Source of the DNA: a virus
Lineage: Duplodnaviria; Heunggongvirae; Uroviricota; Caudoviricetes
DNA: 41,470 nt
Strand: one strand, 5' to 3'
Virus record (IMG/VR): IMGVR_UViG_2690316195_000001
Location: 1-41,470 of that record
Shown: positions 2,895-20,118 of the stretch, piece by piece
How the letters are laid out: the number at the start of each line of letters is the position of its first letter
How positions within the stretch are numbered: position 1 is the first letter of the stretch
Position numbers and translations under genes: made by a program
The notes under the pieces: model-generated
The model's input: the letters and a program-made list of their open reading frames with translations, nothing else
Database searches by the model: none
Told to the model about the DNA's origin: nothing

Positions 2895-3438
2895 GGTTAA
2901 CCTCCTGCGGCGGCTCCGGTAGCGGCATCCAGTGAGTTATTTCATCGGCAAAGATATCTGAGTTAAGTTCCGTCCAACTATTCCAATACCCAGATTCATC
3001 CCACCATTTAACCTCGACATGCTCGCCGTCGGTCACTAACACATCAGCATACCCTTTCGGCATTCGCTCACTACAGCTTATCCAAGCATCCGGAGTTACC
3101 GGAGAGTTGCCATTTACATCGAAGTTTGGCTCTGCGTCCTGAACCAGGAGGATGTAACCATTCTTGGCAGTATCAAGTTCTAACGCTTCGGTGACGGTGC
3201 CGAAATAGCGATTACCTAAATCAGCATCACAAGTGCTTACATCAATGGAAACTTCCATGCCTTCGATCAATTCTGGCAAGTTGTAAGTTTGGCTTACAGG
3301 TTCGGCTTCCAGTGAGGCTAACGCAATCCGTGCCAGTTCTTCCGCTTCTTCTGCTGGCAGTACAACGTTGCTACCCGGTCCGTATGTTTCGCGCCACTGC
3401 TTGATTGTCAGCAGTCGCTCTTTGGTCATAGTGGTCAT
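2887..3438 (-). CDS. DUF551-domain phage protein (start trimmed to MTTMTKERLL)
   Basis: C-terminal ...ITHWMPLPEPPQ signature of DUF551; AAGGAGAG RBS upstream of the ATG at 3438; the 5' part of the track ORF overlaps the upstream gene. Confidence 0.65.
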   Translation of the reverse strand: MTTMTKERLLTIKQWRETYGPGSNVVLPAEEAEELARIALASLEAEPVSQTYNLPELIEGMEVSIDVSTCDADLGNRYFGTVTEALELDTAKNGYILLVQDAEPNFDVNGNSPVTPDAWISCSERMPKGYADVLVTDGEHVEVKWWDESGYWNSWTELNSDIFADEITHWMPLPEPPQEVNRG

Positions 3439-16382: not shown

Positions 16383-16672
16383 TGGCTAAACTACGCAAAG
16401 AAGCGCGCGGCAGAGAATGCCAGGTACGTATTTACGGCGTATGCAATGGCAACCCTGAAACTACAGTTCTGGCACATTACCGGATGGCTGGAATTTGCGG
16501 AACGGGAATGAAGCCTGACGACCTGATCGGCGCATGGGCTTGTAGCGCGTGTCACGATGAAATCGACCGACGTACCCATAACCTCGACAACAAAGACGCC
16601 AGACTTTACCACCTCGAAGGCGTGATCAGGACGCAGGCGATACTGCTGAAGGAGGGGAAGATTAAGTCATGA
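16382..16672 (+). CDS. DUF1364-family nin-region protein (YbcO-like)
   Basis: MAKLRKEARGRECQVRIYGVCNGNPETTVLAHYR...ACSACHDEIDRRTH resembles E. coli DLP12 YbcO by recall. Confidence 0.7.
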   Translation: MAKLRKEARGRECQVRIYGVCNGNPETTVLAHYRMAGICGTGMKPDDLIGAWACSACHDEIDRRTHNLDNKDARLYHLEGVIRTQAILLKEGKIKS

Positions 16673-17031
16673 ACGAATATCAGTTTGTGCTTCCATACCC
16701 GCCGTCGGTGAACACCTACTGGCGAAGACGGGGAAGCCAATACTACATCAGCGATAAAGGCCAGAAATACCGAAAAGACGTTCAGAAAATCATCCGCCAA
16801 CTCAAGTTAGACATTTTCACCAAATCACGACTCCGCATCAAAGTAATCGCAGACGTTCCAGACTCCCGCCGCCGCGACCTCGATAACATCCTGAAAGGTT
16901 TACTCGACTCACTTATCCACGCCGGATTTGCGGAAGACGACGAGCAATTCGATGACATTCGCGTAATTCGTGGTGTGAAAGTACCAGGCGGAAGGCTTGG
17001 AATAAAAATCACCGAACTGGAGAACGTATGA
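16669..17031 (+). CDS. rusA: RusA Holliday-junction resolvase
   Basis: 120 aa with RusA hallmarks (LPYPPSVNTYWRR, RRRDLDN, GGRLGIKITE). Confidence 0.9.
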   Translation: MNEYQFVLPYPPSVNTYWRRRGSQYYISDKGQKYRKDVQKIIRQLKLDIFTKSRLRIKVIADVPDSRRRDLDNILKGLLDSLIHAGFAEDDEQFDDIRVIRGVKVPGGRLGIKITELENV

Positions 17032-17216
17032 ACGCCACAATTCAAACGATACCAGAGCTTCTTATCCAGACACGAGGCAATCAGACCGAAGTGGCGAGGA
17101 TGCTTTCCTGCGCAAGAGGAACAGTGCTCAAGTACAACCGAGACAGCAAAGGCGAGCGTCACGTAATAGTTAACGGCGTCCTGATGGTCAAACAGGGCAA
17201 GAGGGGAAGACCATGA
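17028..17216 (+). CDS. ninH: NinH-like small DNA-binding protein
   Basis: ...GNQTEVARMLSCARGTVLKYNRD...VIVNGVLMV resembles lambda NinH (GNQTEVARRLKCSRGTVRKY). Confidence 0.7.
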   Translation: MNATIQTIPELLIQTRGNQTEVARMLSCARGTVLKYNRDSKGERHVIVNGVLMVKQGKRGRP

Positions 17217-17836
17217 GACTCGAAAGCGTAGCTAAATTTCACTCGCCAAAAAGCCCGATGATGAGCGACTCACCACGGGCTACGGCTTCTGACTCTCTTT
17301 CCGGTACTGATGTGATGGCTGCTATGGGGATGGCGCAATCACAAGCCGGATTCGGAATGGCTGCATTCTGTGGTAAACATGAACTCAGCCAGAACGACAA
17401 ACAAAAGGCTATCAACTATCTGATGCAATTTGCACACAAGGTATCGGGGAAATACCGTGGTGTGGCAAAGCTTGAAGGAAATACTAAGACAAAGGTACTG
17501 CAAGTGCTCGCAACATTCGCTTATGCGGATTATTGCCGTAGTGCCGCGACGCCGGGTGCAAGATGCAGAGATTGTCACGGTACAGGCCGTGCGGTTGATA
17601 TAGCCAAAACGGAGCAGTGGGGGAGAGTTGTTGAGAAAGATTGCGGAAGATGCAAAGGTGTCGGCTATTCAAGAATGCCAGCAAGCGCCGCATATCGCGC
17701 TGTAACGATGCTAATCCCAAACCTTACCCAACCCACCTGGTCACGCACTGTTAAGCCGCTGTATGACGCTCTGGTGGTGCAATGCCACAAAGAAGAGTCA
17801 ATCGCAGACAACATTTTGAATGCTGTCACACGTTAG
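17213..17836 (+). CDS. Q: Late-gene antiterminator Q (lambda type)
   Basis: 207 aa, MRLESVAKFHSPKSPMMSDSPRATASDSLSG... essentially identical to lambda Q by recall. Confidence 0.95.
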   Translation: MRLESVAKFHSPKSPMMSDSPRATASDSLSGTDVMAAMGMAQSQAGFGMAAFCGKHELSQNDKQKAINYLMQFAHKVSGKYRGVAKLEGNTKTKVLQVLATFAYADYCRSAATPGARCRDCHGTGRAVDIAKTEQWGRVVEKDCGRCKGVGYSRMPASAAYRAVTMLIPNLTQPTWSRTVKPLYDALVVQCHKEESIADNILNAVTR

Positions 17837-17878
17837 CAGCATGATTGCCACGGATGGCAACATATTAACGGCATAATA

Positions 17879-17907
17879 TTGACTTATTGAATAAAGTTGG
17901 GTAAATT
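17879..17907 (+). promoter_or_regulatory. Late promoter pR' (-35 TTGACT, -10 TAAATT) with adjacent qut region
   Basis: ATATTGACTTATTGAATAAAGTTGGGTAAATTTGACTCAACGATGG closely matches the lambda pR' region as recalled. Confidence 0.7.
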
Positions 17908-17942
17908 TGACTCAACGATGGATAAATGCACTCGTTAAATAA

Positions 17943-17977
17943 AGCCCTGAGTTAATAGCTCGGGCTTTTTGCGTTTT
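17943..17977 (+). terminator. Promoter-proximal rho-independent terminator downstream of pR'
   Basis: Hairpin AGCCC...GGGCT followed by TTTTTGCGTTTT about 40-60 nt after the predicted start. Confidence 0.5.
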
Positions 17978-18113
17978 AATCACGACCTTTCTGAAAGCAC
18001 ATCAAACCAAATACCAGACAGACAAAAATAATCACCTTATCCGCTGTGGCTACGGTGCGGTGTGCTTTGCATAAAAGAAAACCAGCGCAATGGCTGGCTT
18101 CGTGAAAGCGGGT

Positions 18114-18148
18114 GGCAAGAGGTTGCGCTAACAACCTCCTGCCGTTTT
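18114..18148 (+). terminator. tR'-like terminator (lambda-homologous hairpin)
   Basis: GGCAAGAGGTT / AACCTCCTGCC stem followed by GTTTT; sequence block closely matches the lambda tR' region as recalled. Confidence 0.6.
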
Positions 18149-18270
18149 GCCCGTGCATATCGGTCACGAACAAATCTGATTACTAAACACAGTAGCCTGG
18201 ATTTGTTCTATCAGTAATCGACCTTATTCCTAATTAAATAGAGCAAATCCCCTCAATGAAGGGGTAGAGC

Positions 18271-18474
18271 ATGTACCGTATGGACAAAATCAGAGAATGG
18301 TTCAGTTACAGCTTCGGAGGACTGACTGCGATGGGTGGCATTCTCTCCCTGAATGACTGGGCTGTCATCATTGGTATTCTTTGTACTGTCGGCACATTTG
18401 GCATCAACTGGTACTACAAGCGCAAAGAGCGCGAGGACAGATTGAATGGCAATGTCACCGGCACTACGAAATAG
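18271..18474 (+). CDS. Holin, probably pinholin-type, with dual-start motif
   Basis: 67 aa, two TM segments, Gly-rich TMD1 ([13 protein letters not shown]), charged C-terminus; two Met codons at positions 1 and 4 (MYRM); partnered with a SAR endolysin. Confidence 0.7.
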
Positions 18475-18949
18475 CGTAATAGCGGCGATAAGTGGCGGGG
18501 CTATTGCTATAGCATCTGTGTTAATCACTGGGCCAAGTGGTAACGATGGTCTGGAAGGTGTCAGCTACATACCATACAAAGATATTGTTGGTGTATGGAC
18601 TGTATGTCACGGACATACCGGAAAAGACATCATGCTCGGTAAAACGTATACCGAAGCAGAATGCAAAGCCCTCCTGAATAAAGACCTTGCCACGGTAGCC
18701 AGACAAATTAACCCGTACATCAAAGTCGATATACCGGAAACAACGCGCGGCGCTCTTTACTCGTTCGTCTATAACGTGGGCGCAGGCAATTTCAGAACAT
18801 CTACTCTTCTTCGCAAAATAAACCAGGGCGATATCAAAGGCGCATGTGACCAGCTACGTCGTTGGACATATGCTGGCGGTAAGCAATGGAAAGGGCTGAT
18901 GACTCGCCGTGAGATTGAGCGTGAAGTCTGTTTGTGGGGGCAACAATGA
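18446..18949 (+). CDS. SAR endolysin (phage 21 R-type lysozyme)
   Basis: N-terminal signal-anchor-release domain ([30 protein letters not shown]) plus lysozyme core; matches the phage 21 endolysin by recall. Confidence 0.9.
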
Positions 18950-19383
18950 GCAGAGCAACCGCGATTATCTCTGCTCTGGTTATCTGCATCATCGTCTGCC
19001 TGTCATTGGCTGTTAATCATTACCGTGATAACGCCATGACCTACAAAGAGCAGCGCGATAAGGCCACATCCACAATCGCTGACATGCAGAAGCGTCAACG
19101 TGATGTAGCAGAACTTGACGCCAGATACACAAAGGAGCTTGCTGATGCTAACGCGACTATCGAAAGCCTCCGTGCTGATGTTTCTGCTGGGCGTAAGCGC
19201 CTGCAAGTCGCCGCCACCTGTGCAAAGTCAACGACCGGAGCCAGCAGCATGGGCGATGGAGAAAGCCCAAGACTTACAGCAGATGCTGAACTCAATTATT
19301 ACCGTCTCCGAAGTGGAATCGACAAGATAACCGCGCAGGTTAACTACCTGCAGGAGTACATCAGGACGCAATGCCTTCGATGA
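18946..19383 (+). CDS. Rz: Rz i-spanin
   Basis: [30 protein letters not shown]... resembles lambda Rz; ATGA overlap with the endolysin stop. Confidence 0.9.
19145..19330 (+). CDS. Rz1: Rz1 o-spanin lipoprotein, embedded in Rz in the +1 frame
   Basis: AAGGAG RBS 7 nt upstream; signal peptide with lipobox LLGVSAC; Pro-rich mature region. Confidence 0.8.
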
Positions 19384-19761
19384 TAGCGATAATTTTACTC
19401 ATCATCCTTCACATCTGGCTCTGTAGACAGGGTGGTGATCACTTCTGGAGTGAATCCAGATTAAACATCTCATTGCTGATGCTTGATATTGAGCATCTGG
19501 CGCGCGGTAAGGGGCTGCGTTGAGATAAGAGCCAGTTCATTACAAAGCCTATCTACGGGTGGGCTTGATAATGAAACCGGAATTTATTCTTGGCAACCAG
19601 TTACGGCAGTACAGCGAAACAACCCAAGCCAGTAAGTGGGGAAATAACACTGGCAGCCACTGAAAGATGAACCTCCAGCCTTATGGCAAAAAAGATTCTT
19701 TGTGGTGGCGGACTGATGGAAAGACATCCTAATCAAGCAACCACTCTACAGGGTCATAATT

Positions 19762-20118
19762 ATGAACGACCAGCAAATCGAAAAAGAAATCGTTGAGAAA
19801 GGCAAAACGTCACCGCGCGTTACGCCTCAATATATCGAAAGCATCATTCTTGAAGAGCATTTCTTTACTGCTTATGACGGCATTCGTGCTGCCAATATGG
19901 GCGTTGGCGATTCATGGACAGCGCATAAATCTACAGACCTCCTGACTTTCTGCGTACTGGTGCTGAAGAATGGCTTCACCGTCACCGGAGAGAGTGCCTG
20001 TGCAAGCCCGGAAAACTTTGATGCAGAAATCGGGCGCAAGATTGCTCGCCAGAATGCTGTAAACAAAATCTGGATGCTTGAAGGTTACTTGCTGAAGCAG
20101 AAGCTAAGCGAACAGTAG
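19762..20118 (+). CDS. Hypothetical phage protein (118 aa)
   Basis: Track ORF between the lysis and packaging modules. Confidence 0.5.
   Translation: MNDQQIEKEIVEKGKTSPRVTPQYIESIILEEHFFTAYDGIRAANMGVGDSWTAHKSTDLLTFCVLVLKNGFTVTGESACASPENFDAEIGRKIARQNAVNKIWMLEGYLLKQKLSEQ

Follow-up and report, generated by a model that had tools for sequence, protein, structure and literature searches.

A mosaic lysis cassette encoding a probable dual-start pinholin, a SAR endolysin and P22-type spanins in a virus of the Caudoviricetes

General features of the lysis cassette

The virus represented by IMGVR_UViG_2690316195_000001 (Caudoviricetes; the window analyzed here is the whole 41,470-nucleotide stretch, positions 1-41,470 of the record) carries four intact lysis genes at positions 18271-19383, encoding a holin, a signal-anchor-release (SAR) endolysin, Rz and an embedded Rz1. 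This cassette is very likely the late-operon lysis module of a P22-like (HK620/Sf6-like) temperate coliphage, built by modular recombination of known parts, with a holin that is most likely a pinholin with a dual start. Judged by sequence, the holin, endolysin and spanins represent three different families and phage lineages that have been joined, with one mosaic junction at the holin start codon and another within the SAR-coding sequence. These junctions, the gene identities, the architecture and the homologies are established directly by the comparisons described below. The cassette is ordinary and already known: the segment is found in 32 of 5,426 complete E. coli genomes, and over its whole length it shares 97% identity with the phages Emek and phiKp_30.

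All four proteins exceed the curated Pfam cut-offs (holin PF16080, endolysin PF00959, Rz PF03245 and Rz1 PF06085) and so are encoded by real genes rather than chance open reading frames. The initial annotation had proposed the same four elements, and the open reading frame list and Pfam matches place each of them where it had been predicted. All features described below lie on the plus strand.

Late promoter and leader region

The cassette is preceded by a gene for a Q late antiterminator of the lambda specificity type (17213-17836; PF03589, 191.7 bits). Alignment to lambda (NC_001416) gives 96.8% nucleotide identity for this gene, with 204/207 amino acids shared, and 93% identity from the Q stop codon to pR'. 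The late promoter pR' and its overlapping qut (17879-17927) were located by a promoter scan and by alignment to lambda and P22. The promoter boxes (within 17879-17907: -35 TTGACT, 17-nt spacer, -10 TAAATT) are nearly identical to those of lambda pR', and the region also closely matches the annotated P-late, qut and late RNA 5' end of P22; from this alignment, transcription would start at approximately 17914. A tR'-type intrinsic terminator follows at 17944-17972 (scan match 17946-17964 plus a T-run). P22 has its annotated "tR'/t late" at the aligned position, and a terminator is annotated at the same place in Emek.

Farther downstream, a block homologous to the region upstream of lambda S (18096-18253) forms the untranslated leader, with 154/158 identical nucleotides. 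The close match of Q, pR' and this block to lambda, as proposed in the initial annotation, is borne out, the block being 97.5% identical over 158 bp. The description of the late region as lambda-type is only partly accurate: Q and the block upstream of the holin are lambda-like, whereas the segment comprising pR', qut and tR' is in essence that of P22, making the region a mosaic. The stretch between tR' and the lambda-like block (approximately 17937-18095), overlooked in the initial annotation, is not lambda-like (47% identity with 246 gap columns). Phage 21 differs at this locus, having Q21 where Q and pR' are here of the lambda/P22 type.

Immediately upstream of the holin gene, both the MFE and the centroid folds contain an sdi-like RNA hairpin (18249-18264; CCCCU-CAAUGA-AGGGG) with a 5-bp stem. 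The G-rich Shine-Dalgarno tract makes up the 3' arm, and the 3' end of the hairpin is located 6 nt from AUG1, as in lambda. The hairpin occupies the position of the lambda hairpin (AUCCCC/GGGGGU) with a different stem sequence. A P22 counterpart at the same position (CCUCAC/GUGAGG) was read from the alignment, not from a fold, and the ST104 and PS34 hairpins are identical or nearly so. Hairpins of varied sequence that sequester the G-tract upstream of AUG1 are found by folding in lambda, 21, Morganella and HK225, in addition to the aligned P22 element. The folding energy is no better than that of shuffled sequence (z-scores of -0.2 to -1.2), so the case for the hairpin rests on its comparative position. 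As in lambda sdi, a hairpin just upstream of the first start codon includes the Shine-Dalgarno tract, and it may be considered a putative regulatory element. The earlier suggestion of a lambda sdi-like structure is therefore upheld on positional and comparative grounds, not on folding energy. An Rfam scan of the whole window at the gathering threshold gave no match, and a scan of 17800-19700 at E-values of 1 or below gave nothing but a spurious snoU85 match.

Holin

The holin gene (18271-18474) encodes a 67-amino acid class II holin. This protein has the conserved domain PF16080 (HP1 holin family, Phage_holin_2_3; TCDB 1.E.7; 75.1 bits against a cut-off of 28.8, profile positions 1-49 of 56), as do 44 of its 45 database homologues. 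It is 100% identical to gp13 of the Salmonella phages PS119, ST104 and SPN9CC and to that of SE1 and Emek. The lysis system of SPN9CC has reportedly been the subject of a published study; a search of the available literature on the lysis genes of PS119 and PS34 found no primary description. Similarity to the phage 21 pinholin S21 is not significant by BLASTP (E-value: 0.27), and the P21-S domain PF04971 scores 19.5 bits, below its cut-off of 26. An hhalign comparison with S21 does give a match that spans the full length of the protein (94.7%, E-value: 5.7e-8). The holin is a distant homologue of S21, visible as such at the profile level only.

Two uncharged segments, at residues 10-27 and 30-49, are followed by a charged C-terminal tail (9 of 18 residues charged). 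The first segment has a mean Kyte-Doolittle (KD) value of 1.02 and is 50% G/A/S/T (0.33 and 57% for S21 TMD1), and the second has a mean KD value of 1.34 (1.50 for S21 TMD2). AlphaFold2 predicts helices at residues 3-22 and 27-58 with low to moderate confidence (pLDDT of 66). A class I holin with three TMDs, which had been named in advance as the outcome that would contradict the pinholin reading, is not seen in either the uncharged segments or the two AlphaFold2 helices. Instead, the predicted layout follows the S21 blueprint: two putative TMDs, of which the first is rich in Gly/Ala/Ser and weakly hydrophobic, and a charged C-tail. TMD1 is somewhat more hydrophobic than that of S21, and the loop between the helices is 2 residues long (N28-D29) as opposed to 7 in S21; because of these two features, release of TMD1 may differ from that in S21.

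The holin frame has ATG codons at 18271 (Met1) and 18280 (Met4), giving an M1-Y2-R3-M4 N-terminus in which a basic residue lies between the two Met codons. Across 18 homologues with identities down to 60%, the only one of these four positions to vary is residue 2 (Y/Q/H), with M1, R3 and M4 invariant. Relatives from Yersinia, Morganella and HK225 start with M-K-M, M-R-M or M-T-R-M. The 67-amino acid product from Met1 is probably an antiholin form and the 64-amino acid product from Met4 a holin form. The motif is that of a dual start, and it suggests that two products are made.

SAR endolysin

The endolysin gene (18446-18949) encodes a 167-amino acid SAR endolysin, a GH24 lysozyme of the R21/RrrD type (PF00959, 155.5 bits). 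It overlaps the 3' end of the holin gene by 29 nt and has a ribosome-binding site (RBS; GAGGA) 8 nt upstream of the ATG at 18446; an alternative start at 18452 is the equivalent of R21 Met1. The protein is 95% identical to R21 and 98% identical to RrrD, and its PDB matches include 4ZPU (RrrD, E-value: 2.4e-107) and 3HDE (R21, E-value: 1.8e-106).

The SAR domain consists of a basic residue (R8) followed by an uncharged, Gly/Ala-rich stretch. Its best 16-mer has a mean KD value of 2.32 and contains G/A/S/T at 9 of 16 positions. The domain aligns nearly residue for residue with that of R21, with residues 18-28 identical. A Gly/Ala-rich SAR domain had been proposed for this protein, and both hydropathy and the R21 alignment bear this out. 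The SAR behavior of R21 is documented in the literature. The catalytic triad (E37-x8-D46-x5-T52) aligns with that of R21. The first 53 residues contain no Cys, and the triad residue at position 46 is Asp rather than Cys, placing the protein with the R21 refolding type and not with the P1 Lyz disulfide-isomerization type. Based on its 95-98% identity to R21 and RrrD, whose structures have been solved, the endolysin is expected to be exported by Sec, tethered to the membrane and released upon depolarization.

Rz and Rz1

The Rz gene (18946-19383) encodes a 145-amino acid i-spanin (PF03245, 128.7 bits), and its start codon joins the endolysin stop codon in an ATGA overlap. A GTG at 18934 was rejected as the start since homologues and RBS positions favor the ATG at 18946. 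Rz has an N-terminal TMD (residues 7-23, mean KD value of 3.15) and a coiled-coil periplasmic domain. It is 92% identical to PS34 gp15 and 60% identical to the Rz proteins of lambda and 21.

The gene for the o-spanin lipoprotein Rz1 (19145-19330; PF06085, 72.5 bits) lies wholly inside Rz in the +1 frame. It has its own RBS (AAGGAG, 19132-19137) 7 nt upstream of the ATG and encodes a lipobox (LLGVSA-C) with the lipidated Cys at residue 20 and Lys at +2, the position of the outer-membrane sorting residue. This embedded arrangement, including the RBS and lipobox, had been described in the initial annotation and was found in full. A TTG at 19115 was rejected as the Rz1 start on the same grounds as the GTG for Rz, homologues and RBS positions favoring the ATG at 19145. 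Rz1 is 96.7% identical to P22 Rz1 and 93% identical to PS34 Rz1, and it lacks close similarity to the lambda/21 o-spanin family (36-38% identity to lambda/21 Rz1). Kongari et al. (2018) place Rz1 of the P22/PS34 type in the HK97 o-spanin family, apart from the Lambda/21 family (PMC6139136). By sequence, the spanins are of the P22 gene 15/Rz1 type and the o-spanin is of the HK97 family. Rz has Cys92 and Cys143 at the positions of lambda C99 and C152, and mature Rz1 has the lipidated Cys and no other; as in lambda (Rz C152 or Rz1 C29), at least one periplasmic Cys is available for homotypic intermolecular disulfides.

Comparison with other phages

The closest counterparts are the cassettes of the Salmonella phages PS34 (AJ011580, genes 23-13-19-15) and vB_SemP_Emek and of the Klebsiella phage phiKp_30, which share the same order of Q, 67-amino acid holin, 167-amino acid SAR endolysin and 145-amino acid Rz with embedded Rz1. 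Nucleotide identity is 93-97% over approximately 93% of 17213-19600, and the holins are 98.5-100% identical. The 29-nt overlap of holin and endolysin genes is also found in PS34 and Emek. Unlike the cassette described here, in which Rz overlaps the endolysin stop codon, Emek and PS34 have approximately 90 bp of additional sequence between endolysin and Rz (Emek "orf30"). The endolysin body is closer to R21 than is that of PS34 gp19, and the KilA-N/Rha gene found downstream in Emek is absent from this window.

Phage 21 shares the endolysin type, SAR domain and E-D-T triad included, and the S21 blueprint recurs in the holin: two Met codons that flank a basic residue in a dual-start motif, a TMD1 of weak hydrophobicity, a conserved Thr and Asn in TMD2 and a charged C-tail. 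However, the holin belongs to PF16080 and not PF04971, falls in a different TCDB family and is 27-31% identical to S21. In phage 21 the holin and endolysin genes overlap by 1 nt in place of 29 nt, and the spanins are of a different family.

Between them, lambda and P22 share with this cassette the lambda-type Q, the S-upstream leader with an sdi-type hairpin, P22-type spanins and an Rz1 embedded in the +1 frame, but the holin and endolysin genes have both been replaced. The lambda and P22 holins are annotated with 107-108 amino acids, and the N-terminus of lambda R has no SAR-like hydrophobic stretch. Both holins are class I proteins with three TMDs.

The system of Haemophilus phage HP1, the namesake of PF16080, resembles this one in having a holin of the same Pfam family, a SAR endolysin gene that overlaps hol and small, non-releasing lesions by experiment (PMC7312051). 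It differs in that Hol has 78 amino acids, no dual start and a reported N-in/C-out topology, and in that its endolysin is similar to P1 Lyz and not to R21 (PMC7312051).

Holin type, start codon usage and origin of the cassette

The case for a dual-start pinholin is good, though indirect, being drawn from sequence and from relatives. A class II topology does not in itself mean pinholes: the T7 holin gp17.5 is of class II and works with a soluble endolysin. A canonical holin of this class, forming large, non-specific holes and compatible with a SAR endolysin because such endolysins work with either holin type, would fit the absence of S21 orthology and the higher mean KD value of TMD1 (1.02 compared with 0.33); lysis modules are also freely shuffled, so the pairing could reflect linkage instead of functional need. 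This is nevertheless unlikely, given the company that these holins keep. Of 7 divergent phages bearing this holin family, 6 encode an endolysin whose N-terminus has an uncharged stretch rich in Gly/Ala, and the exception, APSE-7, has a soluble lysozyme together with an additional holin of the lambda family. The full-length profile match to S21, which includes the conserved Asn and Thr of TMD2, also argues for a pinholin, as does the report that HP1 Hol, which functions together with a SAR endolysin, kills but releases no beta-galactosidase (PMC7312051). The 2-residue loop, together with the N-in/C-out topology reported for HP1 Hol (PMC7312051), could instead indicate that the PS119/HP1-type holins are a mechanistically distinct pinholin lineage and not a diverged S21, triggered by some topology change other than exit of TMD1. 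We consider this quite improbable; were it true, the lambda sdi leader and the Arg3 antiholin would have been recruited independently. The pinholin reading preserves the pinholin/SAR-endolysin layout of the initial annotation, with a small class II-like holin bearing a dual-start motif, a SAR endolysin and embedded Rz/Rz1.

The dual start could be questioned separately. If a single start were used, no antiholin would be made and MYRM would be either an incidental N-terminal extension or an erroneous start call. The holin alone would then set the timing of lysis, as has been reported for HP1 Hol, the characterized family member, which has no dual start (PMC7312051). The M-x-x-M motif is also absent from the mEp515 and C130_2 relatives, the start is placed at Met4 in several database entries and the hairpin alone is not significant. 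The invariance of M1, R3 and M4 around a variable residue 2 in the 18 homologues makes use of a single start rather doubtful. The motif also has the design of the annotated M-K-S-M start of S21 and M-K-M start of lambda, dual starts that are both characterized in the literature, and a positively charged residue separates the two Met codons in every case. In addition, the hairpin is conserved in position while differing in sequence across lambda, P22 and 21. As for the origin of the cassette, the initial annotation had treated it as being of the phage 21 type, that is, as a whole module (S21-R21-Rz21/Rz1-21) moved behind a lambda Q. The endolysin fits this description (95% identity to R21, 98% to RrrD), and the MYRMDKI N-terminus of the holin resembles MKSMDKI of S21. 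The remainder does not: the holin is a PF16080 protein without a significant BLASTP match to S21 or a PF04971 score above cut-off, the spanins are of the P22 type (Rz1 96.7% to P22 and 36% to phage 21; Rz 92% to PS34 gp15 and 60% to phage 21) and DNA similarity to phage 21 begins only within the SAR-coding region, at approximately 18500. The holin, spanin and DNA alignments thus refute transfer of a whole phage 21 module, which retains almost no probability.

Proposed model for lysis

The proposed model for the lysis pathway is as follows. The lambda-specificity Q would load at pR'/qut and carry RNA polymerase past tR' into the lysis genes; Q-modified polymerase would read through the terminator, where termination would leave a leader of approximately 55-60 nt. 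One frame would then give two products, a 67-amino acid antiholin (Met1, with the extra Arg3) and a 64-amino acid holin (Met4), in a ratio set by the sdi-like hairpin as it sequesters the Shine-Dalgarno tract. By then, Sec would already have exported the R21-type endolysin, whose SAR domain would keep it in the membrane in an inactive state. The HP1/PS119-family holin, a class II protein with two TMDs, is most likely a pinholin: TMD1, which is rich in Gly/Ser/Thr and weakly hydrophobic, would exit the membrane and TMD2 would oligomerize into small pores, depolarizing the membrane at a programmed time. Depolarization would release the endolysin, which would refold and degrade the murein. Lastly, the P22-type Rz/Rz1 spanin complex would disrupt the outer membrane. 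The formation of pinholes as opposed to large holes, the use of both starts and the role of the hairpin are the steps of this model that we infer.

The cassette is a textbook case of lambdoid mosaicism, and its importance beyond correct annotation is small. The holin is best named an HP1/PS119-family class II (putative pin)holin with a probable dual start, and not S21. Rz1, which is omitted from many related records, deserves annotation. The endolysin start lies upstream of the holin stop codon, such that the genes overlap, and ST104 gp19 appears to have been called too short. As an identical holin is found in many Salmonella and E. coli phages, its mechanism, once settled, would apply to a large group.

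Late region and lysis genes

The 41.5-kb window represents either the genome or a prophage of a P22-like temperate phage (Lederbergvirus, HK620/Sf6-like). Across 25 kb it matches HK620, vB_EcoP-683R2, IME10 and Sf6 in mosaic pieces, at ~96-97% identity. The lysis cassette sits where the late operon begins: rusA (16669-17031), ninH (17028-17216) and Q (17213-17836) lead directly into the lysis genes, which are followed by a small ORF, a gp49/Sf6 gp66 family gene and the small terminase gene. All four lysis ORFs proposed in the initial annotation are present where it placed them and intact, and for all four proteins the PHROGs and Pfam assignments agree.

The small ORF (19371-19523, plus strand) encodes 50 aa with one hydrophobic helix and has a 13-nt overlap with the end of Rz. 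PHROGs assigns it to phrog_11822 (unknown function), no Pfam family matches, and 44 phage records, Sf6 (gene 65), epsilon34 (gene 67) and HK620 among them, have it conserved at 92-100% immediately 3' of a P22/HK97-type Rz gene. Its product may be a fifth membrane protein associated with the cassette. The N4 gp49/Sf6 gp66 family gene (19762-20118, plus strand; PF13876, DUF2829-like), situated 3' of the lysis cassette and 5' of the small terminase gene, has a counterpart in the equivalent position in Sf6 and HK620-like phages.

Upstream region

Direct alignment bears out the similarity to lambda that the initial annotation gave for Q, pR' and the S-upstream block. Q is 96.8% identical to lambda Q at the nucleotide level (204/207 aa), and a 158 bp stretch (18096-18253) is 97.5% identical to the block upstream of lambda S. 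The pR' hexamers (TTGACT-17-TAAATT) are found at 17879-17907, and qut and the pause region (AACGAT) are conserved. From pR' through qut to tR' (17879-17972) the sequence is in essence that of P22, with an early terminator and a short leader, in contrast to the 194-nt 6S RNA of lambda. The Q-independent pR' transcript (17914-17972, plus strand) would be ~55-60 nt, as in P22. The ~160 bp at 17937-18095 are not lambda-like at all, and lambda similarity stops within ~20 nt of the holin ATG, at a classic module junction. In the non-lambda insert that separates tR' from the S-upstream block, the minus strand (17976-18101) carries a terminator-like hairpin (18101-18078) plus T-run and an ORF with a very hydrophobic tail at its end (VIIFVCLVFGLMCFQKGRD, then the stop). 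This element has no Rfam match and may be due to chance.

The structure said to resemble sdi, the lambda S-gene hairpin 5' of the first start codon, is a CCCCU-CAAUGA-AGGGG hairpin at 18249-18264, present in both the MFE and centroid structures and equal in position to the lambda hairpin (AUCCCC/GGGGGU). P22 sequence at this position can pair CCUCAC/GUGAGG, as read off the alignment. In the window, lambda and P22 alike, the G-rich Shine-Dalgarno tract falls inside the hairpin, which ends 6 nt 5' of AUG1. The window hairpin by itself is no more stable than shuffled controls and its evidence is therefore comparative: in phage 21, Morganella IME1369_01 and HK225, the dual-start holin gene likewise follows a hairpin of like design but unrelated sequence. 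For Yersinia 210.17, a competing hairpin is predicted instead (z -0.04).

Holin

The holin (18271-18474; 67 aa) has the conserved domain PF16080 (HP1 holin family; 75 bits, far over threshold). The gp13 proteins of PS119, ST104, SE1, SPN9CC, Emek and others have the identical sequence (100%); 31 phage records contain it at ≥99% identity, and the closest database cluster (99% identical) has 219 member sequences. Against the phage 21 pinholin S21 (query sequence confirmed against phage 21 record OL657228, 100% identity), BLASTP gives an E-value of 0.27, and the P21 holin S family (PF04971) scores 19.5 bits, under its cut-off of 26. A 12-member profile of the holin family aligns with S21 over its full length (hhalign probability 94.7%, E-value: 5.7e-8). 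By these comparisons the protein is a distant relative of S21 rather than an orthologue.

Residues 10-27 (mean KD 1.02, 50% G/A/S/T) and 30-49 (mean KD 1.34) are uncharged, 9 of the 18 C-tail residues are charged, and the AlphaFold2 model has two helices (3-22 and 27-58; pLDDT 66). Three transmembrane domains (class I), named beforehand as the contrary outcome, are therefore excluded. The physical blueprint matches that of S21, except that the inter-helix loop has 2 residues and TMD1 is somewhat more hydrophobic. The MYRM start noted initially has ATGs at 18271 and 18280; M1, R3 and M4 are invariant and residue 2 variable in 18 homologues (identity down to 60%), and more distant relatives start with M-K-M, M-R-M or M-T-R-M. 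The putative dual-start motif, a design shared with S21 (M-K-S-M) and lambda S (M-K-M), is thus well supported by conservation, and both start codons are probably used.

SAR endolysin

The endolysin (18446-18949; 167 aa) is preceded by GAGGA 8 nt upstream, and its first 29 nt are shared, in a different frame, with the end of the holin gene. A second ATG at 18452 is equivalent to Met1 of R21, the phage 21 endolysin. The protein has the conserved domain PF00959 (156 bits, far over threshold) and is 95% identical to R21 (structures 3HDE and 3HDF) and ~98% identical to RrrD of E. coli DLP12 (4ZPU). The catalytic triad (E37-x8-D46-x5-T52) is found, and the proposed SAR domain holds up: residues 18-28 are identical to R21. 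As this domain contains no Cys, the enzyme is of the R21 (refolding) type and not the P1 Lyz type.

Phage 21 DNA similarity starts only at ~18500, within the SAR-coding sequence, and the DNA 5' of this point is PS34/ST104-type; the SAR region therefore contains a recombination junction. The holin C-terminus (window 18435-18510) is invariant even in family members with N-terminal halves <50% identical (P0045, HK225); the DNA here also codes for the endolysin 5' end, and its position coincides with the junction. At the annotated start of ST104 gp19 a single base is different: an A-to-G change has made an internal ATG (ST104 locus, 3170-3215). The gene was probably called too short, with the true start upstream as in the window.

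Spanins

Rz (18946-19383) has an ATGA overlap with the endolysin stop. Rz1 (19145-19330) has every feature initially described: it lies wholly within Rz in the +1 frame, with AAGGAG at 19132-19137, a 7-nt spacer and a lipobox with Cys20 and Lys at +2. Pfam scores are far over thresholds (Rz: PF03245, 129 bits; Rz1: PF06085, 72 bits). The identity of Rz is 92% with PS34 gp15, against 60% with lambda/21 Rz; that of Rz1 is 96.7% with P22 Rz1 and 93% with PS34 Rz1, against 36-38% with lambda/21 Rz1. The HK97 embedded o-spanin family includes PS34, Emek and P22, with phage 21 in a separate Lambda family (Kongari et al. 2018).

Rz keeps two periplasmic cysteines: C92 corresponds to lambda C99, and C143 to C152. 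In mature Rz1, only 5 of the 42 residues are Pro and the lipidated Cys20 is the sole Cys, so that lambda Rz1 C29 has no equivalent. Judging from the residues present, any intermolecular disulfide would have to derive from Rz C92 or C143. This set is in keeping with published work in which at least one of two disulfides, Rz C152 or Rz1 C29, is required (Kongari et al. 2018).

Mode of lysis and relationship to known cassettes

The holin likely works in pinholin mode, rather than as a canonical holin. The profile-level homology to S21 counts for this reading, as does the pairing with endolysins: in six of seven divergent phages bearing an HP1-family holin, the endolysin has a SAR-like stretch at its N-terminus. 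The exception, APSE-7, has a soluble lysozyme plus a lambda-family holin. Hol of HP1, after which the family is named, kills with no release of beta-galactosidase, is partnered by a SAR endolysin and is required for phage release (PMC7312051). Against the pinholin reading, no dual start is present in HP1 Hol, which is reported to be N-in/C-out (PMC7312051), and class II topology is not diagnostic by itself. In the APSE-7 locus (Hamiltonella phage; 1510-2441), the HP1-family holin is followed by the lambda-family holin and then by the lysozyme without a SAR domain; this layout fits the idea that an HP1-family protein alone cannot release a soluble endolysin.

The "phage-21-type" label of the initial annotation suits the endolysin and fails for the holin, by PF04971 and BLASTP, and for the spanins, by Rz and Rz1 identity; the S21 alignment it called for is negative by BLASTP and positive at profile level. 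The functional class it gave, a pinholin/SAR-type layout, is judged right, and the mode itself is what we infer. The cassette is already known and ordinary. PS34 (GenBank AJ011580) and Emek (annotated) have the same Q-holin-endolysin-Rz order, each with ~90 bp extra between endolysin and Rz. Emek and phiKp_30 match the segment at 97% identity, and among 5,426 complete E. coli genomes 32 contain it at ≥80% coverage. The epsilon34 genome paper had noted that three holin types, not homologous to one another, and three types of lysin are shuffled among P22-like phages (PMC2629481). The holin itself is very widespread.
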